A stretch of 64,000 bases of DNA from Clostridia bacterium (lineage in GTDB: Bacteria; Bacillota; Clostridia; Oscillospirales; CAG-272). The DNA is taken from the NCBI GenBank assembly GCA_017532025.1, contig JAFXJX010000090.1, positions 9,910 to 73,909 of the forward strand, in the 5' to 3' direction. The notes below the pieces were generated by a model. It saw only the letters and a program-made list of their open reading frames with translations, was not told the origin of the DNA and searched no databases. Made by a program: the position numbers and the translations under genes. How positions within the stretch are numbered: the stretch's first letter is position 1; each line of letters opens with the position of its first letter. Below are positions 3,001 through 62,410 of the stretch, piece by piece.

Positions 3001-4480
3001 CAACATCAGAACCGCCGTCATCGGCAGCACTTGGTACAATATGTTCAACAGTTGCTCATCGTTGACCGACGCAACCATTCTGAATGGCGTTACCGACATT
3101 CCCTCGTACACCTTCCGGTATTGCTACGCGCTGAAAAACGTAACCATTCCGAGCAGCGTAACGAGCATTGGATACCACGCTTTTGAAAGCTGTACCTCGC
3201 TCACCGAAATCAGCATTCCCGACAGCGTAACGACGATTGGCAGCTACGCCTTCACAGGTTGTACCTCTCTTTCCGAAATCACCATTCCCAACAGCGTCAC
3301 CTCGATCGACTCGGGCGCCTTCGCGGGTTGCTCCTCTCTGGCATCGGTTTCGATCGGCACAGGCATCACCTCTGCCGGAAGCGACATCTTCTGGTATTGC
3401 ACAAGCCTGCAATCCGCCGTTGTGGGCAGCGCGTGGACCAATATGTTCTATCAGTGCAATGCCCTCACGGACGTCACCATTCTCAACAACGTCACCGTCA
3501 TTCCCTCGTATATGTTCTATGCTTGCTCCTCGCTCAAGAGCCTGGTCATCCCCGAGGGTGTCACCAAAATTGAGAATTACGCCTTCTGCGATTGCACCGC
3601 GTTGGAAGCTCTCTCTCTTCCCAACAGCTTAGAAACACTTGACTCCTCCGCCTTGCAGAACACAAACGCTTTGGTCTACAACGAGTATGACAACGCCTAC
3701 TATCTTGGCAACGAAACCAATCCTTGCGTCGTTCTGATCAAAGCAAAGAACACCGACATCACCTCGTGCGAGATCAACAACAGCACCAAACTCATTGCCA
3801 ACAATGCGTTTGCCTACTGCCGAAATCTCACCGAAATCACCGTCCCCGACAGCGTACTGACGATTGGTAGCTACGCCTTCTTTCAGTGTACCTCGCTCAG
3901 CACGGTTACGGTTGGCAACAGCCTGAAGCAGATCGAAAACCATGCGTTCTACCAGTGCTCGGCGCTCAAGAGCATCACGCTTCCCGAAACGCTCATCAGC
4001 ATCGGACAGTACGCCTTCCACGGTTGCTCGGCGCTTGAAAGCATCAATCTTCCCTCGGGTCTGACCAATTTGGGTACTTACGCTTTCTACGATTGCAACT
4101 CGCTCACTTCAATCGTCATTCCCGACAGCCTGACCTGTATCAACAGCTACACCTTCTACTGCTGCACCTCGCTGTCCGATGTGGTTCTGGGTAACGGCAT
4201 CACCGCCATCTACGGTTCTGCCTTCTATGGCTGCACCTCGCTTACCTCGATCGTTATCCCCGCAAACGTGCGTCAGATCTCCTCTTACGCTTTCTACGGC
4301 TGTTCGTCCCTGACCTCTGCCACATTTGCCCAAACAAGCGGTTGGTATTACGAAAAATGGTATCAGAACTGGTGGGGCAGCGGATATTACCAGCAGTATT
4401 CGATCAGCAAGCTCGGCAACGCCTCCACCGCCGCAGGCAACCTCACCTCGACCTACGCAAGCCAAACCTGGTATCGCTGA
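2..4480 (+). CDS. Giant surface protein, 5'-truncated by the window edge. It has N-terminal tandem Cys-rich modules followed by dozens of BspA-type leucine-rich repeats (LRR_5-like).
   Basis: Frame 2 has no stop from nt 2, so tracked ORF 272..4480 continues off the left edge. Nt 2-430 encode ~42-aa modules PTCTExG...CSxC...QTVLxALGH. The rest is the reiterated unit IPxxVTxIGxxAFxxCxxLxxIxLP. The stop at 4478-4480 is followed by a hairpin terminator. Confidence 0.85.
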   Translation, partial: HAFVPHQTISPTGHTEITDPRVEPTCTETGLTEGKHCSVCHTILKAQTVLDALGHSVTVTPGYAPTCTKEGLQEGRHCSRCDQTLQEQTVLPPTGHTVVTVTGTPATCTEIGRSDAEYCSVCNETLSLQTVLPALGHDYVDHVCTRCQHEIHDSEGLSFTSNGDGTCYVSGMGSCRDRDLIIPEKAPNGDLVIGIAAYAFDGTDITSVTIPKGVTTIGHSAFAYCYYLKNVFLPDTVTAIDSYAFYYNESLASISLPSGVTSIGSYTFAYCFKLESVVLPEGITEIGERTFQSCSSLQSIQIPASVSSIGYYAFAYCHKLKEITLPEGLTQLSDAVFSECTALESITLPEGLTAIGANAFYYCTSLKSITLPKSLTSIGEHAFYYCASLTSISLPAGLTEIGIYAFYDCLSLTEITIPASITTLPSCVFYNCSSLTKVTLPEGLGEIGNYAFYNCTQLAEVVLPEGLKTISSQAFCNCSKLTKIIIPDSVNTIGYNAFSYCYALSFVQIGSGVTSAGSDIFYSCSGLEKAIVGSTWNYMFNGCRALKEVEITDTVTVIPYSAFNGCSSLTKVTLPSTLTEIQASAFNSCSSLESIQFPESLTTLGNYAFAYCSSLTELVIPDSVTTIDYCAFSYCYALKSVQVGTGVSRAGSEIFYGCSSLSTAVVGSAWESMFRYCTVLSDVTILNTVTVIPPYMFGECSSLKELTLPDSITEIGAYAFHYCVALTSINIPETVTSIGSYAFRSCSSLTSVSIPDGVTVLSQGLFYECTALTEITLPEGLIEIGSYAFCGCTSLSEITLPNSLTAIGNGAFSACSSLKSITIPEGITAIGESTFSGCSGLESVNLPSGITEIGSYAFSSCYALKEITLPENLLTLGNHAFYECIALKTVVIGGKLRQIDSYAFYGCSSLESINLPEGLTFIGNDAFHGCSSLESISLPEGLTTIDSYAFYGCSSLSEITIPDSVTRIGNYAFADCSALASVNIGTGVTSAGDGIFAYCSNIRTAVIGSTWYNMFNSCSSLTDATILNGVTDIPSYTFRYCYALKNVTIPSSVTSIGYHAFESCTSLTEISIPDSVTTIGSYAFTGCTSLSEITIPNSVTSIDSGAFAGCSSLASVSIGTGITSAGSDIFWYCTSLQSAVVGSAWTNMFYQCNALTDVTILNNVTVIPSYMFYACSSLKSLVIPEGVTKIENYAFCDCTALEALSLPNSLETLDSSALQNTNALVYNEYDNAYYLGNETNPCVVLIKAKNTDITSCEINNSTKLIANNAFAYCRNLTEITVPDSVLTIGSYAFFQCTSLSTVTVGNSLKQIENHAFYQCSALKSITLPETLISIGQYAFHGCSALESINLPSGLTNLGTYAFYDCNSLTSIVIPDSLTCINSYTFYCCTSLSDVVLGNGITAIYGSAFYGCTSLTSIVIPANVRQISSYAFYGCSSLTSATFAQTSGWYYEKWYQNWWGSGYYQQYSISKLGNASTAAGNLTSTYASQTWYR

Positions 4481-4523
4481 TTCTCTTCCCCATCCTGTCT
4501 CGAAAGGATAACCAAAACAAAAA

Positions 4524-4556
4524 ACGGCTTACGGGAAATCCCGTAAGCCGTTTTGA
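4524..4556. terminator. Bidirectional rho-independent terminator
   Basis: CGGCTTACGGG-aaat-CCCGTAAGCCG stem-loop flanked by an A-run upstream and a T-run downstream. It lies between the convergent ends at 4480 (+) and 4568 (-). Confidence 0.7.
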
Positions 4557-4567
4557 TTTGATTCGGT

Positions 4568-4777
4568 TTATTTTACCGTTTTATAATCGGTTACAAGCTG
4601 AATATTGTCTACGTAAACAGGCTTGCCCACCATTTCGGAGGAGTTTGCGCTCATATAGAAGTAAATGCCCGAAATCGCAGAATTCGAATTGAGTTTGCTT
4701 GAGCCGCAGTACATATCCGAGATCGGAAAGGCGAAATAGCCCTTGTAGCCCGCAACCGAGCAGCTGTCGCCCGCGCC
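4568..4777 (-). pseudogene. Orphan 3' fragment (last 69 codons) of a paralog of the phosphoesterase lipoprotein gene 10173..12056
   Basis: It encodes GAGDSCSVAGYKGYFAFPISDMYCG...KPVYVDNIQLVTDYKTVK, colinear without gaps with the C-terminus of ORF 10173..12098. Upstream of GAGD the similarity stops and there is no catalytic domain or start context. Confidence 0.75.
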
Positions 4778-4795
4778 TATTTCGGTGATAGGTTT

Positions 4796-5137
4796 ACTCG
4801 GTATTACGAAACGGAGCGCAGAGAGATAACGCAAGAGCCAACGGCAAAGGAAATCTGCTTTGTTTGTATCCGTGAGGATGGCACGTATATCACGCCCCGA
4901 ACAATGCAACACACATCACGCATTATACATCTTGACTTGAACATAAGGGATTTTGATTATCATAGCCTACGGCACACCCACGCCACAGTTTTGCTTGAAA
5001 AGGGCGCACCGCTCAAATACATTCAGCAAAGGCTCGGACACAAAAAGATAGACATAACGATAAACGTGTATCAGCACTTGACCGATGACCTGCGGCAAAT
5101 GGGAACGGACATTCTCAACGGCATTTTTACCTCATAA
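4796..5137 (+). pseudogene. Tyrosine recombinase (phage-type integrase), C-terminal fragment only
   Basis: Translation reads ...ICFVCIREDGTYITPRTMQHTSRIIHLDLNIRDFDYHSLRHTHATVLLEKGAPLKYIQQRLGHKKIDITINVYQH. This is the HxLRHT...LGH...Y catalytic C-terminus. The N-terminal SAM-like domain and the box I Arg region are absent, and the frame runs straight into the 4568-4777 fragment. Confidence 0.8.
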
Positions 5138-5268
5138 CCGCTCTCTCAAAGTATGCCTTTTTATCCCTAACTACTCGGCAATTTTTATACAATCCCTCTC
5201 GGAGTAGTATAAACGGCTTATGAGCGCTTGAATGGTGCTTGTAAGCCGTACTATTTAGGGTAAACTAC

Positions 5269-5297
5269 TTGCAAAAAGCAGAAAACTGTGATATAAT
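5269..5297 (+). promoter_or_regulatory. Sigma-A-type promoter (TTGCAA-17-TATAAT)
   Basis: TTGCAA at 5269-5274, a 17-nt spacer, and TATAAT at 5292-5297. No ORF begins for about 240 nt downstream. Confidence 0.5.
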
Positions 5298-5487
5298 ATA
5301 TATGCCACATAATTCAATCAACAAATTTTACGGGATAACTCTCTAATTTTTTAGAGGGTTTTGTAACTATACCTTTTTTCATACGTCGATAATGGATTTG
5401 GCAAAAATGCGATTTCCGCTCGACGTGTGAAGGAGAGTATCCTGATTTGTTGAGAATTGTGTGGCAACAATGGAAACGCATTTTTCG

Positions 5488-5524
5488 GGTGCGTTCTCAT
5501 TGGAGCGCACCTTTTTTATTTTCA
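5488..5524 (+). terminator. Intrinsic terminator at the end of the 5300-5520 leader or small RNA
   Basis: GGTGCGTTC-tcattg-GAGCGCACC followed by TTTTTTATTTT. An upstream AACGCA...TGCGTT pairing shares the GCGTT segment and is a possible antiterminator. Confidence 0.55.
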
Positions 5525-5543
5525 GCGAAAGGAGGGAAAGACA

Positions 5544-5735
5544 ATGACTTTATACAATGAAGTTAAAATGCTTGATGAAAAAATCAATGCCATTGATATG
5601 CCTTTTGATAAGGGTCTACCGCTTCTTCAAAATCTGTTATGGGAAATCGCAGACCGTCACAATACAACAGGTCCAGAAGAATTAAGAATGTATTTTGATA
5701 TGAAATCAGCAGAATTAAAAAATAGCAAGGAGTGA
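5544..5735 (+). CDS. Small hypothetical protein (63 aa)
   Basis: ATG at 5544 is preceded by AAGGAGGGA. It was chosen over the tracked upstream start at 5457. No recognisable motif. Confidence 0.5.
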   Translation: MTLYNEVKMLDEKINAIDMPFDKGLPLLQNLLWEIADRHNTTGPEELRMYFDMKSAELKNSKE

Positions 5736-5808
5736 CAAAATGAAAAAAATAATTGCATTGTTTGAACTGCCCCAAATTTCACAGGATGTGTTTTTTCTTT
5801 CCTACCCG

Positions 5809-5837
5809 TTGACACCGTACCGCCGAGATGCTATACT
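5809..5837 (+). promoter_or_regulatory. Sigma-A-type promoter (TTGACA-17-TATACT)
   Basis: TTGACA at 5809-5814, a 17-nt spacer, and TATACT at 5832-5837, about 40 nt upstream of the RBS AGGAGGA and the ATG at 5877. Confidence 0.6.
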
Positions 5838-5876
5838 GTAACCACAAGCCACCGTTTTACCACAGGAGGAGAAAAT

Positions 5877-7166
5877 ATGATGAAAACGCTTCTGAAAATA
5901 GCTCTCTGTCTGATTATGATCAGTTTCGCCGTAATGGCAATCACATCCTGCGACAGCACGAAAGAAAGCAAAGGACTTGAATTTCACCTCAGCGATAACG
6001 ACACCTACGAGGTGATCGGCATCGGTGAGTGCAAGGATCTTGATATTATCATTCCAAAAAAGTACAAAGGCAAACCGGTAATCATGATCGATGACTCTGC
6101 TTTTAGCGGATGCGACGAGATCACAAGCGTGACCATCCCCGACGGCGTTGCGTTTATTGGCGAATTTGCATTTTCGAACTGTGAAGAATTGACTGAAATC
6201 AACCTTCCTGCCAGCATCCTGACCATCGGAAACAACGCATTTCAAGGTTGTGAAGATCTTGCCAAAGTCAACATTGCCGATCTTGCAGCTTGGTGCGATA
6301 TCACTTTCTATAACATTTTTTCCAATCCCTTGTATTTTGCCCAAAAACTATCTGTAAAAGGAGAAAGCGTCACCGATCTTGTCATTCCCAACGGTGTCAC
6401 AAGCATTGCAAACTACGCCTTTGCCGGCTGTAATCGCCTGACAAGCGTGACAATTCCCGACGGTGTGACAAAAATCGGTAACAGCGCCTTTTTGCTCTGC
6501 AGTCGATTGGAGCACGTCACACTCGGAAACGACCTGACCGATGTGGGGATCGGTGCTTTTGCTTCCTGTGACGATCTTGCCTATACCGAATATGAAAACG
6601 GAAACTATCTCGGCAACGAAAACAATCCCTACCAAGTATTGATCAGTATCCCAAGCACCGATATTTCGTCTTTCGTTATCCATCCCAACACCAAAGCCAT
6701 TGGCGGCGGCTCTTTTTCCTACTGCAGCAAACTGACCGCCATCACTCTCCCCGAGGGTCTTGTGTTTGTTGGAAGAAACGCGTTTTCCAATTGCCGCGCA
6801 CTCACACAGATCACAATTCCCGATAGCGTAACCACGATCGGATACAACGCCTTTGGTGATTGCTACGAACTAGCAAACGTCACGTTTGGCAAGAACTTAA
6901 AGACCATTGACACCGGCGCATTTGCATTCTGCGGCAATCTCAAAACCGTAACCTTCCCCGATGGTCTTGAATCAATCGGCTATCAAGCATTTTGTTGGAC
7001 CAACCTTAAAAGTGTCACAATCCCCCAAAGCGTAACAACGATTGCTAAGAGTGCTTTTGGCGGTAGTCCCACAATCTACTGCCAAGCATCGCGCCAACCC
7101 GAGGGCTGGGATAACGAATGGGCAGAGTCGGGTTGCACTGTCATTTGGAACGCCAAAGAGAACTGA
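5877..7166 (+). CDS. Lipoprotein with BspA-type leucine-rich repeats
   Basis: Signal peptide plus lipobox (MMKTLLKIALCLIMISFAVMAITSC), then repeated IPDGVxxIGxxAFxxCxxLxxVTxP units as in the giant LRR protein. Confidence 0.85.
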   Translation: MMKTLLKIALCLIMISFAVMAITSCDSTKESKGLEFHLSDNDTYEVIGIGECKDLDIIIPKKYKGKPVIMIDDSAFSGCDEITSVTIPDGVAFIGEFAFSNCEELTEINLPASILTIGNNAFQGCEDLAKVNIADLAAWCDITFYNIFSNPLYFAQKLSVKGESVTDLVIPNGVTSIANYAFAGCNRLTSVTIPDGVTKIGNSAFLLCSRLEHVTLGNDLTDVGIGAFASCDDLAYTEYENGNYLGNENNPYQVLISIPSTDISSFVIHPNTKAIGGGSFSYCSKLTAITLPEGLVFVGRNAFSNCRALTQITIPDSVTTIGYNAFGDCYELANVTFGKNLKTIDTGAFAFCGNLKTVTFPDGLESIGYQAFCWTNLKSVTIPQSVTTIAKSAFGGSPTIYCQASRQPEGWDNEWAESGCTVIWNAKEN

Positions 7167-7176
7167 CACGCCATTC

Positions 7177-7200
7177 GGGTCATTCGTGAATGACCCCTAC
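7177..7200 (-). repeat. REP-like unit (GTAG + hairpin), read on the minus strand as GTAGGGGTCATTCACGAATGACCC
   Basis: GGGTCATTC-gt-GAATGACCC hairpin immediately followed by CTAC on the plus strand, 11 nt after the stop at 7166. Confidence 0.5.
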
Positions 7201-9738: not shown

Positions 9739-9780
9739 CAGTCTTTTCCCAATCTTCCGCACATCATCATGAATGACCCC

Positions 9781-10055
9781 TACTACGATGTTTCAACTAA
9801 AACTTTACATTTGTCTATACCGCGAGATCCGACGCCAACCTGTAAGCAAGCGACTTGCTTGCAAGTCGAAGCGCCCTGCGCTACGCTTGGGTTTCGACTG
9901 CGTCCGCCCGTGTCATCCTGAGCATTGGAGCTGAAGCTCCCGTCGAACTGCGTAGCAGTGCCGAGCGTAAGCGATGGCAGGATCTCGGGCGGACTTCGCT
10001 CAAGATGACACGCGGCACGAAACTGTGTCAAGTTTTAGTTGAAACACGGTACTAC
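9781..10055. repeat. MITE-like nested-palindrome repeat, copy A
   Basis: Terminal inverted repeat TGTTTCAACTAAAACTT (9789-9805) / AAGTTTTAGTTGAAACA (10030-10046). Internal motifs are CCGCGAGATCC / GGATCTCGGGCGG and GTGTCATCCTGAGC / GCTCAAGATGACAC. Near-identical copies occur at 22412 and 44575. Confidence 0.7.
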
Positions 10056-14481: not shown

Positions 14482-15060
14482 TCAATACTGCTTAGCACCG
14501 CAGCCCGTGCACTTGCCGTCTTCGTCAAGAGCATTGCCGCAGAACCTACAGAATCTCGCCTTAGGATTCTTGGTGGGTTCTGCAGGTGTTACGGGTGTTG
14601 CGGGTGTTACAGGTGTTGCAGGTGTTGCAGGTGTTGCGGGGGTTGCAGGTGTTGCAGGTGTTGCAGGGGCGTGCTTTTTATGTCCGTCAAGCTTTTTGTT
14701 GATCTCGATGGTATTCTTCACAAGAAGAACGAACATCATAATACCCTCATACAAAAGTCTGATCAAAACAGGCATAACAATCAGCCCCAAAAGACCGTAG
14801 TAACCGAGCCATTCGTCATATTCCACCCAAAAGAGCATGAAAAAGCCCATAACAACAGAGGTAACGGTTGAGAAAATGTAAAAGAATCTGAGAATTTTTT
14901 CAATCCATAAGCTCTTGAAATTAAAAAGATTGTGAAGAAACACCGCAAACGGATGTCTTAATGCAGCGCGCTTGGACTCCGGAACCAAAAGAACAAGTGC
15001 TGCAATGGTGCCCATAAGACCGAAAAGCAAAGAAAGAATGTAAATAGTGGAAAGTGGCAT
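14482..15060 (-). CDS. Membrane protein with a (TPA)n linker and a C-terminal zinc ribbon
   Basis: About four hydrophobic segments, then PATPATPATPATPATPVTPATPVTPA, then the CRFCGNALDEDGKCTGCG CxxC...CxxC motif. RBS is GGAGG. Confidence 0.75.
   Translation of the reverse strand: MPLSTIYILSLLFGLMGTIAALVLLVPESKRAALRHPFAVFLHNLFNFKSLWIEKILRFFYIFSTVTSVVMGFFMLFWVEYDEWLGYYGLLGLIVMPVLIRLLYEGIMMFVLLVKNTIEINKKLDGHKKHAPATPATPATPATPATPATPVTPATPVTPAEPTKNPKARFCRFCGNALDEDGKCTGCGAKQY
14585..14665. repeat. Nine tandem 9-bp units (GGTGTTGCA and variants) encoding the TPA/TPV repeat
   Basis: Counted unit by unit from 14585 to 14665, in frame within the CDS 14482..15060. Confidence 0.85.
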
Positions 15061-15145: not shown

Positions 15146-17254
15146 TTATTTTCTCTTCTTAAATATGGCAACACCAAGCAAAGAAACCACAACCACACCG
15201 CAACATACAATGAGCAGTACCTCCGTATTGTCAAACAGCCAATCACGAATGCTATCGGGCTTAGCGGTGTTTTCCTTTTCAATTTCCTTGATTTCATATT
15301 CACCGCAGGTCTTGCAATCGCGGCGCTTCATCTCTGTGTCGTCAGAAGAACCGGATGTAAACCATTCTCCGAAATTGTGGTCTGTCTTGGGAATGTCTTC
15401 TGTCTCGGTATGACCGCAAACCGAACAGGTCTTTTTTCTCTTGCCGACCTCGGTGCAAGTGGCTTTTTTGGTCACAACACCTTCATCATACGAGTGCGTT
15501 TGGCACTCCTCTCTTTCAGGTGTGTGGAATTCTTTATAGTTATCGCCGCACACCGAACAGGTATAGAGTGTATAACCGTCATGTTCGGTTGCCGAATAAC
15601 TGTGAGGAGCTACCGTGCGTTCTCTCGAACAAACATTACAAGTTGCATCGCAAGCATTGTCATAGCTGTGTGCTGCTTTTTCAACCTCAGCGCCGCACTT
15701 GGTACACGCTTTCCAATGGTGCGTGCCGTTGGACTCTAATGTAGCCCCGTAGGTGTGTGTAACCGTGCGTTCTCTTCCGCAACCATTGCAGTACGCATCA
15801 CAGTCATTGTCGTAGCTGTGTGTTGCTTTTTGAATCTGATCACCGCACTCGGTGCATTCTTTCCAGTGGTGCGTACCGTCCGATTTCAACGTTGCGCCGT
15901 AGGTATGTGTAACCGTGCGTTTTCTTCCGCAACCGTTGCAGTACGCATCACAGTCATTGTCGTAGCTGTGTGTTGCTTTTTGAATCTGATCACCGCACTC
16001 GGTGCATTCTTTCCAGTGGTGCGTACCGTCCGATTTCAACGTTGCGCCATAGCTATGCGTAACCGTGCGTTCTCTCGAACAAACGTTACACTTTGTATCG
16101 CAGTCATTGTCGTAGATGTGTGCTTCTTTTTCAGTCTCATCACCGCACTTGGTGCACTCTTTCCAATGGTGCGTGCCGTTAGACACGAATGTAGTTCCGT
16201 AGGTATGCGAACATTCGGTCGCATCCTCCAGCACCCATATCTGATTGGCGGCTTTGGTAGTTGTCGTAACGTATAAGCGGTTTTCAGCGGTTCTTGTAAC
16301 AGACAGTTTCGGATTATCAGCAGGATGAATCAAATATCCACCATTGCACTCCTCGAAAATCCATCTTTGCGACTTGTCACCAGCTATCTTGTTATACAGA
16401 GCAACTTCGTCACCGTGATCGGTAGGAGCGCTAGAATCGGGTTGCTTGTAACAATTGCTTTCCCACCATGCATGAACAATATAGCCATTTTGGGTAGCGG
16501 TGGGAGTAATAATATAATAATCTCCCTCTTCTTCCACCATAAAAGTAAACCTCTCGTCCGCACTTCCATCAGAACAACCAAGAACATTTGTCACTTGCTT
16601 TTTGTCGCTCTTCATATACATACGGTAACCGTTGTTGTTGAAGTAGTAAATTCCCTCTGCAATATTGGCAGGTTGGATTTGAAGATCACCCTCATATCCT
16701 TGATAAAAATAAGATACCGGGCCACCATCCGCCGTAGAGTTATTGTTTATCGTGGTAGACGAATAGTTCCATTTTCCTCTAACTTCCAAATGCAAGTGTT
16801 TGCCATATGAGTATCCCGAAGATCCCATCGTTGCCAATGGCTGACCACCGATTACCATATCATTTTTACGAACGACGATCGTGTCTTTCAACAAATGACC
16901 ATATATAACGTCATAGGTGGTATTATCGGATCGCGTGCATCTGACAACAACTGCGTTTCCCCACGTATTGTTGTGTTCACATCCACCGTTCACTCCTTCA
17001 CTGCTATGCCAACAGTTGTTAAACACCTCTATAACTTTTCCTTCGACCGATGAATATATCGTATCATCTTGTTTAGCAACAATATCTATTCCAAGATGGG
17101 AACTAGAGTATTTCTGTCCCGGGGTAATTGTGCCGTTTTTTACAGGCCATAGAAAACTATATGTAGCCGCCGCCTCGCTTTCAATGGCAAACATCGGTAT
17201 GATTGAAATAACCATAATCAGCGCCATGACAATCAAAGATATTCGTTTTTTCAT
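15146..17254 (-). CDS. Secreted, membrane-anchored M23 (LytM-type) metallopeptidase with a ricin-B-like lectin region, four 50-aa Cys/His-rich repeats and a C-terminal TM anchor
   Basis: Signal peptide MKKRISLIVMALIMVISIIPMFAIESEA. M23 motifs are HLGIDI and GKHLHLEV. QRWIFEE and NQIWVLED are QxW-like. Repeats read HxYGATLKSDGTHHWKECTECG...YDNDCDAYCNGCG. The C-terminus is LLIVCCGVVVVSLLGVAIFKKRK. Confidence 0.85.
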   Translation of the reverse strand: MKKRISLIVMALIMVISIIPMFAIESEAAATYSFLWPVKNGTITPGQKYSSSHLGIDIVAKQDDTIYSSVEGKVIEVFNNCWHSSEGVNGGCEHNNTWGNAVVVRCTRSDNTTYDVIYGHLLKDTIVVRKNDMVIGGQPLATMGSSGYSYGKHLHLEVRGKWNYSSTTINNNSTADGGPVSYFYQGYEGDLQIQPANIAEGIYYFNNNGYRMYMKSDKKQVTNVLGCSDGSADERFTFMVEEEGDYYIITPTATQNGYIVHAWWESNCYKQPDSSAPTDHGDEVALYNKIAGDKSQRWIFEECNGGYLIHPADNPKLSVTRTAENRLYVTTTTKAANQIWVLEDATECSHTYGTTFVSNGTHHWKECTKCGDETEKEAHIYDNDCDTKCNVCSRERTVTHSYGATLKSDGTHHWKECTECGDQIQKATHSYDNDCDAYCNGCGRKRTVTHTYGATLKSDGTHHWKECTECGDQIQKATHSYDNDCDAYCNGCGRERTVTHTYGATLESNGTHHWKACTKCGAEVEKAAHSYDNACDATCNVCSRERTVAPHSYSATEHDGYTLYTCSVCGDNYKEFHTPEREECQTHSYDEGVVTKKATCTEVGKRKKTCSVCGHTETEDIPKTDHNFGEWFTSGSSDDTEMKRRDCKTCGEYEIKEIEKENTAKPDSIRDWLFDNTEVLLIVCCGVVVVSLLGVAIFKKRK
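15600..16205. repeat. Four tandem 150-bp coding repeats, the central two nearly identical
   Basis: Units start at about 15599, 15749, 15899 and 16049. Units 15749-15898 and 15899-16048 differ at only a few positions. The outer units resemble each other (A-B-B-A pattern). Confidence 0.85.
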
Positions 17255-18533: not shown

Positions 18534-18658
18534 GTAGGGGCGACCCTATGTGGTCGCCCGTCATAAACGATTTTAGCAAAACAAAATTTGATTGAAAAAA
18601 ATCAAATACCATAACGTGTGTTCTATCATTGCGGGCGACCACACAGGGTCGCCCCTAC
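18534..18658. repeat. REP doublet: two GTAG-hairpin units in inverted orientation
   Basis: GTAGGGGCGACCctatgtGGTCGCCCG (18534-18560) and its near reverse complement CGGGCGACCacacagGGTCGCCCCTAC (18632-18658). The spacer holds a TTTGATTgaaaaaaATCAAA palindrome. Confidence 0.65.
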
Positions 18659-18823
18659 TATGATGTAACGTCTAAAACTTGATATAAACCTCTCTCCGCC
18701 TCGCCAAGGCGAGCCACCTCTCCCAAAGGGCGAGGCTTAGCTTTGAAATACTCTCCCTACGGGAGAGTTACCGTGAAGCGCGTGAGAGGGCAAAATAAAG
18801 TTTTAGTTGTTACGGCGCACTAC
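18659..18823. repeat. MITE-like repeat, copy D (family termini, different interior)
   Basis: Termini are GATGTAACGTCTAAAACTT and AAAGTTTTAGTTGTTACGGCGCACTAC. The interior has hairpins CCTCGCCAAGGCGAGG and CTCTCCCTACGGGAGAG instead of the CATCCTGAGC motifs. Confidence 0.55.
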
Positions 18824-21595: not shown

Positions 21596-22378
21596 ATGTT
21601 CTGTCCTAACTGCAAAAAAGAAATTCCCGACAATTCCGCATTTTGTTCTGAATGCGGCGAACCCATCGTAGCACCCATTCCGGAATCCGCACCCACAGCT
21701 ACCCCTACCGTTCCGGTAAAAAAAATTCAGTACTTTACCAAAGTTGCACCCAAAAACAAGCGCATTCTTGCCGGCGTTGCGCTTGCTTTCGGTATCCTTT
21801 GCATCCTGTTCGTCTTCCTGTCTGCCAACAACACCGTAAACGGTTCGTTCTTTGATCTGCCCATCGTTTCGATTTTTGATCTTGACGACGACGAATTCAA
21901 TCAGTTGGAAAAAGATCTCGACGAAGCCGTAAAGGTTATTGAAGAGGCAGATAACGATGAAATCAAAGAAATTTTAAGTAATATCTTGAAGGTACCTGTC
22001 CGTGAAATCAAAGACCCGGAGAGCGAACGAGAAAAAATCCTTGACCTGCTCACCCCTTTTTCGCTCAACAGCACGCTTGTACTGAGTGAAGAATACAGCA
22101 TGGCACCGTCTGAAGATTCGGATTTGATCAGCACCGTGATCACAGGCATTTGGATCATTGCCGCCTTCTTGATACTCCTCACCGCACTTGGCGTTTTCTT
22201 CATGAAAACCTGGATCATGGTTCTTTCCTACATCCTCGGCGTGCTCTTTGTCATCCTCACAGGCGGCTTTGTATACTTTATCTTGACAACAGTTGCCTAC
22301 ATCACCACCGCAGTTCTCTTCTCCAAGATGAAGCGCCATTACGAGGCATACAAAGCAGCTTGCGTCACAAACATTTAA
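21596..22378 (+). CDS. Zinc-ribbon membrane protein
   Basis: MFCPNCKKEIPDNSAFCSECG zinc ribbon, then several TM segments. RBS is AAAGGAGAGG. Confidence 0.75.
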   Translation: MFCPNCKKEIPDNSAFCSECGEPIVAPIPESAPTATPTVPVKKIQYFTKVAPKNKRILAGVALAFGILCILFVFLSANNTVNGSFFDLPIVSIFDLDDDEFNQLEKDLDEAVKVIEEADNDEIKEILSNILKVPVREIKDPESEREKILDLLTPFSLNSTLVLSEEYSMAPSEDSDLISTVITGIWIIAAFLILLTALGVFFMKTWIMVLSYILGVLFVILTGGFVYFILTTVAYITTAVLFSKMKRHYEAYKAACVTNI

Positions 22379-22388
22379 ATTATTTTTC

Positions 22389-22647
22389 GGGTTGTCGAGG
22401 GCGCCAACCCCTACTACGCTGTAACAACTAAAACTTTATATAAATAATTTCCGCGAGATCCAAACGGCAAGCCGTTTGCCCTGCGGGTTTCGACTGCGTC
22501 CGCCCGTGTCATCCTGAGTGAAGCGAAGCGAAATCGAACTGCGTAGCAGTGCCAAGCGTAAGCGACGGCAGGATCTCGGGCGGACTCCGCTCAAGATGAC
22601 ACGCGGAGTGAAGTGTATGTAAAGTTTTAGTTGAAACAAGGTGCTAC
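22389..22647. repeat. REP-like hairpin (22389-22414) fused to MITE-like repeat copy B (22412-22647)
   Basis: GGGTTG...CAACCC followed by CTAC, then termini GTAACAACTAAAACTT / AAGTTTTAGTTGAAAC. The interior is nearly identical to copy A from GGGTTTCGACTGCGTCCGCCCGTGTCATCCTGAG onward. Confidence 0.7.
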
Positions 22648-37379: not shown

Positions 37380-40300
37380 ATGACAAAGCTTTTTTCTTTG
37401 CCCAAATCCCGCCGTATCCTCATCCACAGCATCGTGATTGCCCTTGCGCTTCTTTTGCTTTTGGTTCTTTCACCGAAAGCACACGCCGAAAACGCCAAAA
37501 ACAGCCATGCGTTTGACGGCGTTCATTTCAAAAGAGAAAGCATCACGCTGAAGGTAGGCGGAAGCTATCCGCTTTCCCTGCGCAAAATCAATGCCGGCAG
37601 TGAAAAAGAAATTTACACAAGCGAAAACGAAGAGATCGCCACCGTGAAAGACGGCGAAGTGTTTGCCCTCGCAGAAGGCGAAACAACAATCACCGTGAAA
37701 AAGGGCAAGTATTCTGACAGCGTGAAGGTCAGAGTAACCAAGAATGACCCGGCAATGGAAGAATACGAACACACCGCCGAGCTTCTGCGCGACTTTTTAG
37801 ACCTTCGTTTCGGTCTGTTTTTGCACTTTAACAGCGCTACCTATGAATTCGCAAACGGAGGCGACTGGGGTGGCAGCAACGGTGAAAACCACACCTCCGC
37901 CTTTGATCCTGCCGTTTGGGATCCTTCTCAGCTCGACTGCGAAGGCTGGGCAAAAGCCGCCAAAAGTGCCGGCATGACCTTTGCCGTTCTCACCACCAAG
38001 CACCACGACGGCTTTAATCTGTGGGACAGCGCTTACACCGATTACGACGTGGGAAGTGCCAAAAATACCACCGACGTGGTCAAAGCTTACACCGACGCTT
38101 GCCGCGCCGAGGGCATTCAACCTGGTTTGTATTTTTCCATGCTTGATATCAAGCACAAGATCACCTCACAAAGCTGTTCTGCCAACGATATTGAGTTCAT
38201 CAAAGCACAACTCACCGAGCTTTTGACAGGCTACGGCGAAATTCCTTTCATCATTTTTGACGCCTGGAATGCCTATTGGGGCGGCCCCAACTACACCTTG
38301 TTGCCCTATGAGGAAATCGTCAACCTCATCCACACCCTTCAGCCGAATTGCCTTGTGATCAACATCAGTTGTGAGGCAAACAACGTGCATTCGCAGGTTA
38401 CCATGTTTGAAAGCGGCGCAGGACAAGGCGTGCCCGAATGGTTCGACAACGTCAACATCTCCTGCAACACCCCCACGAGCGACTGGTTCTTCGATAAAGG
38501 CACGCTCAGCTCGATCAAATCGGTCGATTGGGTACTGAAAGAAAACATCAGCAAATTCCGCGATTCGGATACCGTCTTCATTCTGAACGCCTCGCCAAAC
38601 AAAAAGGGCAAGATCGACGCAGCGTTCACGAAACTTCTTTCCGAGGTCGGCAAAGGATATGCCAAGACGGCAGACGTTGAAAAAATGCCCGACCGCTATC
38701 TTGCCGATTACGACTATCACAACAACCTTCTCTTCCACAAAGATTTCGCATCGAGCGGATATGACGGCAAAGCCTCTCCGGGGCGCGTTGCCGATGGTTA
38801 CTGCGACGAGGATTTCGAGCATGAAACCGCCTATAAATCCACCAGCGGCATGACTTATCTGACAGGCGACATCGGCTACAAAACATCCCTCGGCAAGCTG
38901 TACGTGCATATCAGCTCAGACATGACAAAGACTGCCGCCGACAAAACCCACGTCTTCCTTTTGAACGAAAACCCCGGCAGAACATCATACAACAAGCTCT
39001 CAAACAGCGAATACGTCAAAACCCTGAAGCTGACCGATGGAAATTTGACCGATAACTGCTACACGCTTGATTTTGAAGGCGCAGAAGGTCGCTACGTTGT
39101 CTTTGTGCTGGAAGGATCCGGCTCGTTCTCTTTCAGCGAGATCATTCTGAATCCTTACTCTTTGAAAGATGACGCCGCCCACTCTTTGAGAGACAAGTTC
39201 GAAACGGTTACCACCACCGTCGGCAAGCTCCCCACCCTTCCCGAAAAAGCCTACTTCATCGCGGCAAACGGCGCGCTTGTGGAAAAAGCGATTACTTGGA
39301 ATACCGAGAACCTTGCGCTTTCCCAAGCAGGCAAGACCACTCTCTACGGTGCTACCGACGACGGCTGTGAAGTTACCATGCCGATCCGCGTCATGACAGA
39401 AGATCTTTACATCGAAGTACCCTCTGTCAGCGTGACGGCATCTTCGATGTGGAGCCAGGCAGAAGAACTCGGTTGGGCGCATTCGCGCAATCTGATCGAC
39501 AAATCAGGTCTTGACAAAAATGCCGCCAGCATCTTCTTCAGCACGCACGACAATCCCTATAACGGCACATCCATGTGGCACACGCGTGAAGGCAACAAAA
39601 CAGGCTGGCTGATCTTTGACCTTGGTAAAGTTTCCACCGTGAGTAATGCGCTTATCTGGAATCATAACCAAGAGAACGAGCCCGACCGCGGTGTGAAAAC
39701 CATGACGGTATATTACACCGATAAAGCAAGCCCCACTGATAGCGATTGGATCAAGATCGACACCTATACGCTCACAAAAGCGCAGTCTTCTGCCGATCAG
39801 ACAGCCACCGACTTCATTTCGTTTGGCAAGATCGAAGCGCGCAAGATCAAATTTGATATCACAGATAACTACGGCGACCCCTCGGTAACCGGACTTTCGG
39901 AGGTAATCTTCTTTGCCGCCCCCGCAAGCGGCACGCTTGATTACGCCGCCATCTATGCCGCTATGACAAAGCTTGATATGCTGAGCCGCTTTGATTACAG
40001 CGAAAGCAGCTACTCTGCCGCCAAAACCGCCTATACCGCCGCTGAAAAAGGTGTCAAAACAGCCAAGACCCAAGCCGAGCTCGACTCACTCGCCAAGGCA
40101 CTCAGCGATGCGATCACCGAAATGGAAAAGACCTACAGCAAAAAAAACATCCAGTCGCTTTCCTTCAATCTGACAATGGAAGCAGGCAAATCGCTTCCTG
40201 AAACCGTCACGGTCAAATTTACCGACAGAACCACACAAGAAGCAAGCGTGGTTTGGAATATGCTTCCCACCGACAAAGTAAACACCCCCGGCTCGTTTGA

Positions 40301-40815: not shown

Positions 40816-41805
40816 ATGACAAATCTTGAACAAAATCAAATGCACTTTATCAATCTGCGCTTTGGCACATTCATTCATTTTAACAGCGCAAGCGTGCAGT
40901 TTCATGCAACCTCCGACGTGGAGGACTGGGAATTTTTCTGCGAAAACGGCGGACATCCCCGTAAGTACCCTTTCAATGAAAAAGATTTTGCGCCTCAAGT
41001 GATCGATACTGACACTTGGGCAGCCATGGCAAAAGCGGCAGGTTGCCGTTTTGCGGCCCTCACCACCAAGCATCACGAGGGCTTCTGTCTATGGCACACC
41101 GATGCCACAGAGCATTCGGTGAAAAACGCCACGGTCACAACTGACGTGGTGGCAAAGTACCTTGAATCCTTCCGTAAAGTCGGCATTGAAGCGGGGCTTT
41201 ACTTCTCGATTCTCGACCTCACCGAAGGCATCAGCCTCAACAAGCCCTTTACCGAAGAAAACGCTCTTTTCATTGAACGGCAAGTCCGAGAGCTTCTCAC
41301 GCGCTACGGCGAGATTCCCTTTTTGATGGTGGACGGATGGAATTCGCCTTGGGGCGGCCCGTCCTTCAAGGATTTCCCTTTCTCGCGCCTTGATAAGCTT
41401 GTAAAAAGCTTACAGCCCAACTGTCTTCTTTTGAACATCGGTTGGCCGCACTCACTTGCCGGCACAGACGTTGCCTTCTATGAAAATGCGGCAGGGCAAG
41501 AGCTTACGGGCGATTTTTCAGGTCCCGGTGTTTCCTGCAACAAGCTGACCGACGCGTGGTTCCACCGCGACGAAGACCGCAAAAAGCCAACCAAAACCGC
41601 CGATTGGGCGGTGGAAAAAGCGCACGCCTATTTCCAAAAAAACGTCAACTTCATGCTGAACATCTCACCCGACGAAAACGGCTGTGTCGATCAGAATCTC
41701 ATCGATACCTTTGAAGAGATCGGCAAGAAGATTGAGTTTCCCGCACCTCTCGAAACCCTCCCCGACGGTTGGTTGAAGAGGGAGATGGGTGACCAAAATG
41801 GATGA
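40816..41805 (+). CDS. GH29 alpha-L-fucosidase, catalytic domain only, no signal peptide
   Basis: RFGTFIHFNS and LTTKHHEGFCLWHT. It starts 10 nt after the upstream stop. Confidence 0.85.
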   Translation: MTNLEQNQMHFINLRFGTFIHFNSASVQFHATSDVEDWEFFCENGGHPRKYPFNEKDFAPQVIDTDTWAAMAKAAGCRFAALTTKHHEGFCLWHTDATEHSVKNATVTTDVVAKYLESFRKVGIEAGLYFSILDLTEGISLNKPFTEENALFIERQVRELLTRYGEIPFLMVDGWNSPWGGPSFKDFPFSRLDKLVKSLQPNCLLLNIGWPHSLAGTDVAFYENAAGQELTGDFSGPGVSCNKLTDAWFHRDEDRKKPTKTADWAVEKAHAYFQKNVNFMLNISPDENGCVDQNLIDTFEEIGKKIEFPAPLETLPDGWLKREMGDQNG

Positions 41806-42307
41806 GAAGAAAGAACTTCCGACACGGAAGCCGACACGGTTGAAAAGTTTTGATTATAGCTCAAACGGTGTATATTTTATAACAATATGTACCCAAAACC
41901 GAAAGAACATTCTTTCTACAATCACCGATGTAGGGGAGGGGTCGCCCCTCCCGCGATTATCGCATTACGGCAAAATCGTAGATAAATGGATTCAAGAATT
42001 ACCAAATCAATATCCGGAAATATCTGTTGACCGTTATGTCATTATGCCAAATCATATACATCTTTTATTGTGCATAGCCAAGGATAGCGGGAGGGGCGAC
42101 CCCTCCCCTACGGTTGATGCGGCAATGGGATGGCTTAAATATCAAGCGACAAAAGAGATAAATAAACTGCGTACTACAACGGGAGAACGAGTTTTTCAGC
42201 GTTCTTTTTACGACCATATTGTCCGTAATTATGATGATTATTGCGAAATAAGCAAATACATCCACGAAAACCCGATGAAATGGTATGATAAACATTTGAA
42301 CACATAA
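41798..42307 (+). CDS. RAYT-type Y1 (HUH) transposase, IS200/IS605 TnpA superfamily (COG1943-like)
   Basis: YFITICTQNRKNIL, the HUH block VIMPNHIHLLL, and FQRSFYDHIVRN...YIHENPMKW. The ATG overlaps the last codons of the fucosidase gene. Confidence 0.8.
   Translation: MDEKKELPTRKPTRLKSFDYSSNGVYFITICTQNRKNILSTITDVGEGSPLPRLSHYGKIVDKWIQELPNQYPEISVDRYVIMPNHIHLLLCIAKDSGRGDPSPTVDAAMGWLKYQATKEINKLRTTTGERVFQRSFYDHIVRNYDDYCEISKYIHENPMKWYDKHLNT
41930..41954 (+). repeat. GTAG-hairpin (REP-like) inside the RAYT ORF, forward copy
   Basis: GTAGGGGAGGGGTCGCCCCTCCCGC has an 8-bp GGGAGGGG/CCCCTCCC stem with a 3-nt loop. It encodes VGEGSPLPR in frame. Confidence 0.85.
42087..42111 (-). repeat. GTAG-hairpin inside the RAYT ORF, inverted copy
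   Basis: GCGGGAGGGGCGACCCCTCCCCTAC is the exact 25-nt reverse complement of 41930-41954. It encodes SGRGDPSPT in frame. Confidence 0.85.
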
Positions 42308-42351
42308 GATTACGCGCCGATTCCCACCAAATAAAAAAGGAGCATAAAAAG

Positions 42352-42696
42352 TTGCACGTACCTGTTACGTTTTCAGATCACAATATTGTCGCCATCAATA
42401 CTAAGGATGCAACAATTGTCATAAGCCAAAACAAAAAGCTTCACACCATCGACCTCAAGAATTGCGCCGAAAATTTCACAAAAGAATACAACACATCAAA
42501 CGGACTCTGTGTTGGCGACAGAAATATTGAAAAAAACTATGTTCGTCTTTACACCAATGGCATTCCAACCGTTATATCATTTAAGAGATTCTATGTATTT
42601 GGTAAAAAAATCTTGTTTGGGAACAGAAAACAGCGATTTATGCAATTCCAAACAATCATGACACAACTGGGATACACCACATACGATTTGACATAA
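42352..42696 (+). CDS. Hypothetical protein (114 aa), AT-rich, adjacent to the RAYT gene
   Basis: TTG start after AAAAGGAG. No motif recognised. A strong terminator follows. Confidence 0.5.
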   Translation: MHVPVTFSDHNIVAINTKDATIVISQNKKLHTIDLKNCAENFTKEYNTSNGLCVGDRNIEKNYVRLYTNGIPTVISFKRFYVFGKKILFGNRKQRFMQFQTIMTQLGYTTYDLT

Positions 42697-42698
42697 TG

Positions 42699-42733
42699 AA
42701 AACCCCGACAGATTTTCTGTCGGGGTTGTTTTT
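42699..42733. terminator. Bidirectional terminator
   Basis: AACCCCGACAG-atttt-CTGTCGGGGTT with AAA and TTTTT flanks, between 42696 (+) and 42746 (-). Confidence 0.8.
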
Positions 42734-44395: not shown

Positions 44396-44574
44396 AGCGA
44401 CCCTTTCAGGACAGTTATGGGGGATAAAACCCAATATACCGCATTCAGTATAGCATATCCCCCTCGAATTGTCAATATTGTGTTCGGTTTGTTTTTGGCA
44501 ATTTGTTCTGTTGACAAAACTTAGATGACTGCCACCGCGAAAACAAGCCTTGATTGTCCAGGGGCGCACCTGTT

Positions 44575-44787
44575 TTGTTTCATCTAAAACTTTACATTGG
44601 TCAATTCCGCGAGATCCGACCGTTAAAACGGTCGCCCTGCGCTTCGCTTGGGTTTCGGCTGCACACCGCCCCGTGTCATCCTGAGCGACGCGAAGCAAAG
44701 TCGAGGCGCAGCCGAAGTGGGATCTCGGGCGGTGTTCCGCTCAAGATGACACGCGGGGTGAGATTGCGCCAAGTTACACAGTACCAC
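44575..44787. repeat. MITE-like nested-palindrome repeat, copy C (right terminus degenerate)
   Basis: TGTTTCATCTAAAACTT left terminus, CCGCGAGATCC, GTGTCATCCTGAGCG, GGGATCTCGGGCGG and GCTCAAGATGACACGCGG. The right end AAGTTACACAGTACCAC is eroded. Confidence 0.6.
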
Positions 44788-62169: not shown

Positions 62170-62410
62170 CCTATGTGTCATCCTGAGCGAAGAAAATATC
62201 CCAGTGGGATATTTTCGTAGTCGAACTTTTCAAAATCTGCAACAAATTGCAGATTTTGAAAAGGCAAAACGCAAAGCGTTTTGAGGATCTCCCGCATTAA
62301 GTTTGCTATGCCGCCCGAGATCCCGCTTTCGCCATTTGCGTTGCAAATGAGGCTCAGCGCTGCTACGCAGTTCGACTCTGCTTCGCGCCGCTCAGGATGA
62401 CACGGGCGCC
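62170..62410. repeat. Nested-palindrome repeat, copy E. It shares the CATCCTGAGCG and GAGATCC motifs, lacks the family termini and carries extra hairpins.
   Basis: Outer perfect 15-bp inverted repeat GTGTCATCCTGAGCG (62175-62189) / CGCTCAGGATGACAC (62389-62403). At least four internal hairpins are present, e.g. CTTTTCAAAATCTGCAacaaaTTGCAGATTTTGAAAAG. Confidence 0.6.

Follow-up and report, generated by a model that had tools for sequence, protein, structure and literature searches.

Transposases of the TnpAREP type, or RAYTs (REP-associated tyrosine transposases), bind repetitive extragenic palindromes (REPs) as folded single-stranded DNA, in a strand-specific manner, and the loop bases of the hairpin are recognition determinants (PMC8266576). 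As judged by term searches within Nunvar 2010, Bertels & Rainey 2011, Bertels 2017, Ton-Hoang 2012, Messing 2012 and Corneloup 2021, the REPs described there flank the gene and none lies inside it. In-frame REP insertions within subclass 2.4 tnpAREP genes have been reported (Quentin et al., 2018, BMC Genomics 19:475; PMC6006769), and Di Nocera et al. (2013; PMC3733652) describe REPs in frame within genes of other kinds, among them uvrA, recB and dnaE2. Here we analysed a 64,000-nt stretch of DNA from a Clostridia bacterium (contig JAFXJX010000090.1, positions 9,910 to 73,909; hereafter the window), in which a RAYT gene carries an inverted pair of REPs inside its own open reading frame (ORF). 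The first-pass annotation of the window had implied that internal REPs were new. They are indeed internal, but the novelty was overstated: this central surprise was already briefly published by Quentin et al. in 2018, and relatives of the gene also have flanking REPs.

The gene and its internal elements are arranged as follows (HUH, histidine-hydrophobic residue-histidine):

41798..42307, + strand: Y1/HUH tyrosine transposase gene, RAYT/TnpAREP type, 169 aa from ATG; profile, PDB and model evidence
41930..41954, + strand: left intragenic REP; GTAG at 41930-41933, stem 41934-41941/41945-41952, loop TCG at 41942-41944; translated VGEGSPLP(R)
41955..42086, + strand: spacer between the arms, 132 nt; encodes helix A, beta2 and the HUH strand (LSHYGKIVDKWIQELPNQYPEISVDRYVIMPNHIHLLLCIAKD)
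42087..42111, - strand: right intragenic REP, exact reverse complement of the left one; the + strand reads (S)GRGDPSPT

The encoded protein scored 26 bits against Pfam Y1_Tnp (cutoff 23) and 68.3 bits against the NCBIfam equivalog REP_Tyr_transpos, which is under the cutoff of 80. Its sole sequence match in the PDB was 4ER8, E. coli TnpAREP. An AlphaFold (AF2) model was obtained with a predicted local distance difference test (pLDDT) score of 82.6, and its best structural match was 4ER8_A, TnpAREP with bound REP hairpin (E = 2.6e-5; template modelling score, TM, 0.59/0.60), followed by the IS608 and ISDra2 transposases. The HUH motif is H86-I-H88 (42053-42061), and the catalytic tyrosine is Y154 (42257-42259) within Y-I-H-E-N158-P159, with the asparagine four residues downstream. 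Both histidines and the Y154...N158-P residues are intact in the window transposase and invariant among its relatives (alignment A1).

The sequence GTAGGGGAGGGGTCGCCCCTCCCGC occupies 41930-41954 on the + strand, and its exact reverse complement lies at 42087-42111 on the - strand, with 0 mismatches; the inverted complementarity of the two arms reaches 28 nt at 96%. Both arms are in frame and are translated as VGEGSPLPR (left) and SGRGDPSPT (right), and the translation of the spacer includes ...YVIMPNHIHLLL... and the HUH block VIMPNHIHLLL. The 25-mer pair, its in-frame peptides and the HUH motif between them, as first annotated, were thus all found in the sequence. Each arm consists of GTAG, an 8-bp stem and a 3-nt loop and has a folding energy of -9.1 to -9.6 kcal/mol as DNA. 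The left arm presents its GTAG hairpin on the coding strand, the right arm on the template strand. Allowing up to 3 mismatches, the 64-kb window contains no further copy of the 25-mer (chance expectation, 0), and the stem pattern GGGAGGGGNNNCCCCTCCC has no other occurrence within it. Chance or an assembly artefact as the source of the pair was rejected, the former on the 0 expected matches; an artefact is unlikely because the same architecture recurs in ~70 independent assemblies. We also rejected an intrinsic terminator inside the gene: neither arm is followed by a T-run, and the terminator scan returned only 42701-42727. In an Rfam scan of the window, no family reached its gathering score.

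The model places insert 1 (residues 44-50) at the tip of the beta-hairpin that joins beta1 to helix A; insert 2 forms the loop from the HUH strand to the next long helix (residues 95-103). The blocks that hold them, residues 41-50 and 91-100, have mean pLDDT values of 68 and 71, lower than most of the fold, and both inserts are predicted to lie in low-confidence surface loops. Natural variants have altered these loops further. Two loci (L004 and L036) carry in-frame hairpin-loop insertions of 42-57 nt with both stem halves kept, L007 has four tandem half-hairpin copies in frame, and in L044 the left REP is duplicated in frame.

The transposase belongs to a very large family. Clustering at 90% identity gave 5,091 relatives with E <= 1e-5, and clustering at 50% gave 21,915 clusters with E <= 1e-3 and 9,649 with E <= 1e-10. 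We compared the DNA of 80 homologous loci of 41-78% identity, making 81 genes with that of the window. Nearly all of these loci came from metagenome-assembled genomes (MAGs) of gut Clostridia/Oscillospiraceae; the exceptions include Geosporobacter, with Geosporobacter subterraneus DSM 17957 as L071, and one Burkholderiales MAG. A best-inverted-repeat search around the HUH codons returned near-perfect pairs of 21-31 nt in ~70 of the 80 loci, from different species, and the outer ends of these pairs read GTAGGG...CCCTAC. Altogether, 71 of the 81 genes carry an inverted GTAG...CTAC pair at the same two positions. The left GTAG is in codon phase 0 (Val-Gly) in every paired gene and in most of them starts 48-57 nt past the beta1 anchor. 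The right CTAC usually ends 56-62 nt beyond the first His; its phase is 2 (..PT) in 60 genes and 1 (..PLQ/PLR) in the other 11. A GTAG hairpin of at least 6 bp is formed by 60 of the 71 left arms and by 61 of the 71 right arms. A motif census of the 150 best representatives at 50% clustering, 141 of them evaluable, found both marks in 68, the right mark only in 27, the left only in 10 and neither in 36; the commoner of the two insertion sites is the beta3/alphaC loop. Judged from these loci, the hairpin pair is a family trait, and an ordinary one for its family. Its presence in 71 of 81 genes lends strong support to the suggestion in the first-pass annotation that the subfamily is peculiar in having inserts rich in Gly/Pro/Ala/Arg at these two sites.

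In close relatives of the window gene, the peptides VGEGSPLP and GRGDPSPT are almost invariant. Conservation at the protein level was ruled out as the cause by the frozen codon choice. When conserved four- and six-fold degenerate residues were compared in 17 genes of the window's clade, synonymous codon diversity was 0.15 in the inserts (13 codons) versus 0.68 elsewhere in the gene (23 codons; Mann-Whitney p = 5e-7). The left insert used GTA in 17/17, GGG in 17/17, GAG in 14/14, CTC in 13/13 and CCG in 16/16 cases, and the right insert GGG in 17/17, AGG in 11/11, GAC in 11/11, TCC in 17/17 and CCT in 17/17. The variation left over in the inserts of this clade is confined to the hairpin loop, and in 10 of 16 genes, versus 5.0 expected, the left and right arms share these unpaired loop bases (p = 0.003).

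Between clades, the stems change, and they change in a coordinated way. The 71 paired genes have at least 26 distinct stems, for example GGGAGGGG, GGGACGGG, GGGCGACC, GGGCGATTC, GGGCGCTTC, GGCAGGGGC, GGCGGGGGC, GGGAGGAT, GGGAGCAC, GGGCGCGC and GGGCGGCA. The left and right arms of one gene have identical stems in 47 of the 71 and identical loops in 40, and the peptides of the two inserts co-vary as the arms do:

left VGEGSPLP, right GRGDPSPT
left VGATIGRP, right GRPMVAPT
left VGQGLAPA, right AGASPCPT
left VGRGLAPA, right AGASPRPT
left VGEDIILP, right GRMISSPT
left VGAIHESP, right AIRESPLQ

Among 39 distinct arms with an 8-bp stem and a 3-nt loop (alignment A3), which had been preselected for at least 7 of 8 pairs, compensatory double changes occurred in 5 of the 8 stem pairs (59 cells), and the covariation score was 0.59, versus 0.14 for shuffled arms and at most 0.20 for slid structures. 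The bottom of the stem (columns 5-7 with 21-23) was nearly constant, with G-C in 113 of 117 cells and G-T in the other 4. The layout is GTAG-GGG...CCC in these arms and in most others, and GTAG-GGC...GCC in a few clades.

The irregular pairs were informative about the strand. Non-Watson-Crick stem pairs, read on the GTAG strand, comprised 29 G·T and 0 A·C, and this was true of both arms. The GTAG strand of the right arm is the template strand; therefore, the mRNA would have A·C mismatches there. The asymmetry points to single-stranded DNA, and not to mRNA or protein, as the form under constraint. Folding energies agreed with the same strand in 129 of 142 arms, which were more stable on the GTAG strand, but this comparison was set aside because loop parameters are asymmetric between strands. 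In seven genes (L009, L014, L054, L066, L075, L079 and L070) the two arms are unlike each other and each is self-compensated; therefore, the unit that is kept appears to be the single hairpin, beyond any arm-to-arm pairing. With synonymous sites frozen and stems covarying, the constraint lies on the DNA: what is conserved is, as far as substitution patterns can tell, a DNA element and neither a peptide nor an mRNA fold. Among the explanations first proposed for the pair, cis-acting sites embedded in the gene would be the best reading of this DNA-level conservation.

Copies of the internal arms were also found outside the genes. At least 21 of the 80 loci had a copy just outside the gene. When 21-nt cores were searched with up to 2 mismatches, cognate matches amounted to 0.42 per locus versus 0.021 for non-cognate cores. 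In L029 and L034, REP copies lie on both flanks with GTAG outward, which gives nested pairs, and L079 has five tandem copies upstream of the gene. The paralogs L068 and L079, which reside in one MAG, each have REPs of their own type on the flanks; the single foreign-type REP in L079 sits in a truncated paralog ~1.2 kb upstream. The REP type follows the protein clade even when the inserts are masked. An extragenic REPIN (REP doublet forming a hairpin) with an HUH-derived spacer was considered and rejected, as the L046 case proved to be a second paralogous gene and the L062 copies a tandem partial duplication of the gene. By this correspondence of sequences, the internal REPs are the cognate REPs of the family's own enzymes.

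We consider it somewhat probable that the 25-mers are two live copies of the transposase's own cognate REP substrate, lodged in two permissive loops. The REPs form a head-to-head pair with GTAG outward, like a BIME (bacterial interspersed mosaic element) or a REPIN, and are translated as Gly/Pro-rich, predicted surface loops that flank the HUH strand. Each arm would be maintained as a strand-specific hairpin of single-stranded DNA on its own GTAG strand, the single-stranded GTAG hairpin being the form in which TnpAREP enzymes recognise REPs. We infer that the encoded enzyme treats these internal sites like any other REP, binding and perhaps also cutting and rejoining them, and such action would hold the internal REPs matched to the genomic REP family. 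One REP pair would be tied permanently to the gene, so that enzyme and substrate would be inherited as one and would co-evolve; as a by-product, expression of the gene itself might be affected. For the gene, the REPs may serve enzyme-REP linkage and co-evolution or self-regulation, or may do nothing.

Several observations weigh against a functional substrate pair. Intragenic REPs are not universal: 36 of the 141 evaluable representatives carry neither mark, and L013, within the window's own clade, has neither REP. Because of this variation in the census and of the REP-less L013, the REPs are dispensable for the protein and its fold, and are gained or lost over time. The window has no extragenic copy of its own REP type in 64 kb, and its gene is not REP-flanked. 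The covariation statistics come from arms chosen for being well paired. The conservation could have arisen by repeated homogenisation and not by selection for function, and the published view is that such inserts are probably of little impact on activity (PMC6006769).

A more ambitious account, which we regard as possible but doubtful, is that the intragenic pair is a working BIME/REPIN, a protected master copy that seeds and homogenises the REPs of the genome and allows self-limitation. If so, the substrate of the enzyme would be written into its own coding sequence as a heritable record of its specificity. Self-limitation might take the form of an occasional inversion or rearrangement of the HUH segment, at which two contigs hint. 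A metagenome scan for the inverted configuration yielded at least one contig, L081 (JAEIGA010559737.1, 1800 nt), in which positions 1-215 contain the 5' part of the gene, an arm and a reverse-complemented HUH spacer. The junction falls exactly at the REP arm, the inverted state encodes a truncated product, and the contig stops within the spacer, near the expected place of the other arm; it represents either a real inversion or an assembly misjoin at the inverted repeat, as short inverted repeats may mislead assemblers. L062 (JBAXZA010000015.1, 4408-5480), a single MAG contig, contains a tandem array of 358-nt units, 2.5 in number and 96-97% identical. Each unit comprises the whole intragenic GTAG...CTAC segment (200 nt), a further 20 nt and the 5' part of the gene, and the GTAG of the left REP marks the exact start of the array. 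The array could be a trace of REP-associated recombination, or else an artefact of assembly.

The opposite account, that the REPs are passengers inserted in permissive loops, merely tolerated there and preserved by recurrent replacement or gene conversion from the REP pool, is in our view unlikely. Tolerated insertion into two surface loops was the first explanation offered in the original annotation, and it fits the model and the natural REP-less L013. In favour of passengers, the published opinion just cited is of this kind; intact-looking REP-less relatives exist, namely L013 and the 36 representatives; the peptide sequences of the inserts are highly variable; the loop expansions and tandem duplications of L004, L036, L007 and L044 are tolerated; and unrelated genes also hold in-frame REPs (PMC3733652). 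However, clades with as little as ~41% identity share the position and codon phase of the left arm, which random re-insertion would not produce, and a neutral resident would decay at the gene's synonymous rate of 0.68, whereas the inserts show 0.15. Replacement without flanking homology would moreover need enzyme action on the sites, at which point the passenger account merges with that of a cognate substrate pair.

It is improbable that the structure works in the mRNA, where a long-range duplex of ~25 bp or the local hairpins would cut translation or trigger RNase III and so keep the transposase low. The two arms do pair with each other in the minimum-free-energy fold of the 241-nt RNA (-94.6 versus -62.5 kcal/mol for shuffled sequences, z = -6.6), and exact arm-to-arm complementarity, loop bases included, is common. 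Against this, the preference for G·T on the GTAG strand of both arms (29 versus 0) leaves the right arm with A·C mismatches in the mRNA, the seven genes named above have unmatched but self-compensated arms, about a quarter of the representatives have one arm only, and extragenic REPs with these sequences are found in both orientations.

We think it very unlikely that the pair is an invertible or excisable switch, in which the HUH segment is flipped by recombination or excised by the enzyme to turn the gene off, an idea also raised at first annotation. The reverse-complemented spacer of L081 is in its favour, and the start of the L062 array at the left-REP GTAG suggests REP-associated rearrangement. 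However, the HUH segment is in native orientation in all 71 paired genes from the genome loci; L081, a 1.8-kb contig that ends in the spacer, has the form expected of a misjoin at an inverted repeat of 25-28 nt; the inverted state yields a truncated product; and no dedicated invertase is linked to the gene. Support for the idea is weak at best. Scarcely credible is the last alternative, that the inserts matter as peptides, with a loop before the DNA-binding helix that helps recognise the REP and so couples REP and peptide: insert 2 does lie directly N-terminal to the helix that aligns with the E. coli TnpAREP DNA-binding helix (PMC8266576), but codon choice is frozen beyond the amino acid, clades differ radically in their peptides, the right arm is read in two frames (60 versus 11 genes), REP-less relatives exist, and the homology model of Quentin et al. 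places the subclass 2.4 insert away from the DNA surface (PMC6006769).

The start of the transposase gene overlaps the 3' end of an upstream alpha-L-fucosidase gene by 8 nt. Downstream lie a small ORF (42352-42696, 114 aa), a bidirectional terminator (42701-42727) and a convergent ROK kinase gene. The small ORF had no Pfam match and no homologue near the transposase relatives. The GC content of the transposase gene and this ORF (41800-42700) is 36-43%, versus ~52% in the flanks, and the stretch may be a horizontally acquired insert. Around the homologues, no conserved gene neighbourhood was found: fucosidase, 114-aa ORF and ROK neighbours were absent, with the one exception of a 39%-identical ROK-like stretch in L004. 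There was no link to phages, as viral contigs contained neither the native nor the inverted pattern. Two alpha-L-fucosidase paralogs of 38% identity lie at 37794-38702 and 40816-41802, and this pairing suggests that the transposase gene sits in a putative glycan-utilisation neighbourhood.

GTAG REPs of other types lie outside genes in the window; their stems are GGGCGACC, GGGTCATTC and GGGTTG:

7174-7200, - strand: extragenic GTAG REP, other stem type
18534-18560 (+ strand) and 18632-18658 (- strand): extragenic GTAG head-to-head REP pair, REPIN-like, 71-nt spacer
22388-22414, - strand: extragenic GTAG REP, other stem type

The first-pass annotation had described the internal hairpins as built like these intergenic REPs, and the layout of those at 7200, 18534, 18658 and 22414 is indeed the same, with other stems. 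Because the GGGCGACC stem is the internal type of the RAYT genes in L028 and L037, further RAYT paralogs are suggested to reside elsewhere in the window genome.

Other repeats were seen in the window. A conserved module of ~50 nt (TCGGATCTCGCGG...AATGTAAAGTTTTAGTTGAAACA..GTA, - strand) lies immediately 5' of three GTAG REPs with different stems. Its sites are 9740-9850, 18615-18725, 22370-22480 and 44530-44640, one of them without a REP (alignment A2); it has no Rfam match and could be either a composite repeat or an element resembling a promoter that these sites share. A dispersed repeat, CCCGTGTCATCCTGAGCGA/TGAAGCGAAGC..., unrelated to the GTAG REPs, occurs at 22501-22557, 44670-44704 and 62352-62408 (35-57 nt, 84-94% match, both orientations). 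Long arrays with a period of 69 nt (23 aa) run within large ORFs at ~370-7050 (D1-D7), and our guess is that these ORFs encode leucine-rich-repeat surface proteins. Tandem repeats of 150 nt were present at 15612-16207, and a 9-nt repeat, (GGTGTTGCA)n, at 14558-14674.

How REP families and domesticated transposases stay matched over the long term is an open question in REP/RAYT biology. This co-evolution becomes directly accessible in a gene whose two substrate copies are conserved as DNA and covary with one another as well as with the flanking REPs and the protein clade, and thousands of natural variants, REP-less ones included, are open to comparison. The Gly/Pro-rich inserts are translated REPs and should not be taken as functional protein motifs.

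The locus can be set beside four described systems. Like the classical REPtron of E. coli TnpAREP (Nunvar 2010; Ton-Hoang 2012; Messing 2012), it has the 4ER8 fold, the HUH and Y---N residues and hairpin REPs tagged with GTAG, and many relatives carry inverted cognate REPs on both sides or one side of the gene. The E. coli gene, in contrast, has no REP in its ORF and its two corresponding loops are shorter, whereas the window gene has no flanking cognate REPs. The REPs in unrelated genes likewise carry GTAG, lie in frame as single copies or dimers and give short loop inserts on translation; those are sporadic and their sites vary by species, whereas here the sites are fixed, the family is very large and the gene encodes the REP's own enzyme. 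The pair also resembles a REPIN or head-to-head BIME (Bertels & Rainey 2011; 'HH dimers' of Di Nocera 2013), in that two identical inverted REPs face outward with GTAG and can fold as one long hairpin. It differs in its spacer, which is 132 nt long (typically 20-100 nt) and encodes the catalytic core of the enzyme, and in being coding and single in the window, whereas REPINs are extragenic and multi-copy.

The fourth system is subclass 2.4 TnpAREP (RAYT group 4). It shares with the window a Y1/HUH gene with the NH[IFV]H signature (NHIH here), GTAG REPs whose stems begin with three G-C pairs, and in-frame REPs in peripheral loops of the gene beside flanking copies, the latter seen here in relatives. 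One insertion site is also common to both, the beta3/alphaC loop between HuH and Tyr, which holds the right arm here. The Y motif of subclass 2.4 is YIxNNP, whereas the window has YIHENP and its relatives YIDTNP, YIENNP or YIDNNP; for the WQ motif, the window has FQ and many relatives WQ. NHIH and the REP type therefore fit this subclass, while YIHENP and FQ for WQ appear to do so only loosely. Its hosts are Cyanobacteria and Bacteroidetes, whereas those found here are mostly gut Clostridia. The left arm of the present pair lies upstream of HuH, in the beta1/alphaA hairpin, a site undescribed by Quentin et al., whose paper contains no analysis of covariation, synonymous sites or strand asymmetry. 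Relative to that report, and as far as we found, the new elements are a fixed head-to-head pair in two loops that bracket the HUH motif; the prevalence of this pair in a very large, Clostridia-rich clade; frozen codons, compensatory changes and strand asymmetry; and arms that co-vary with each other, with flanking REPs and with the protein clade.

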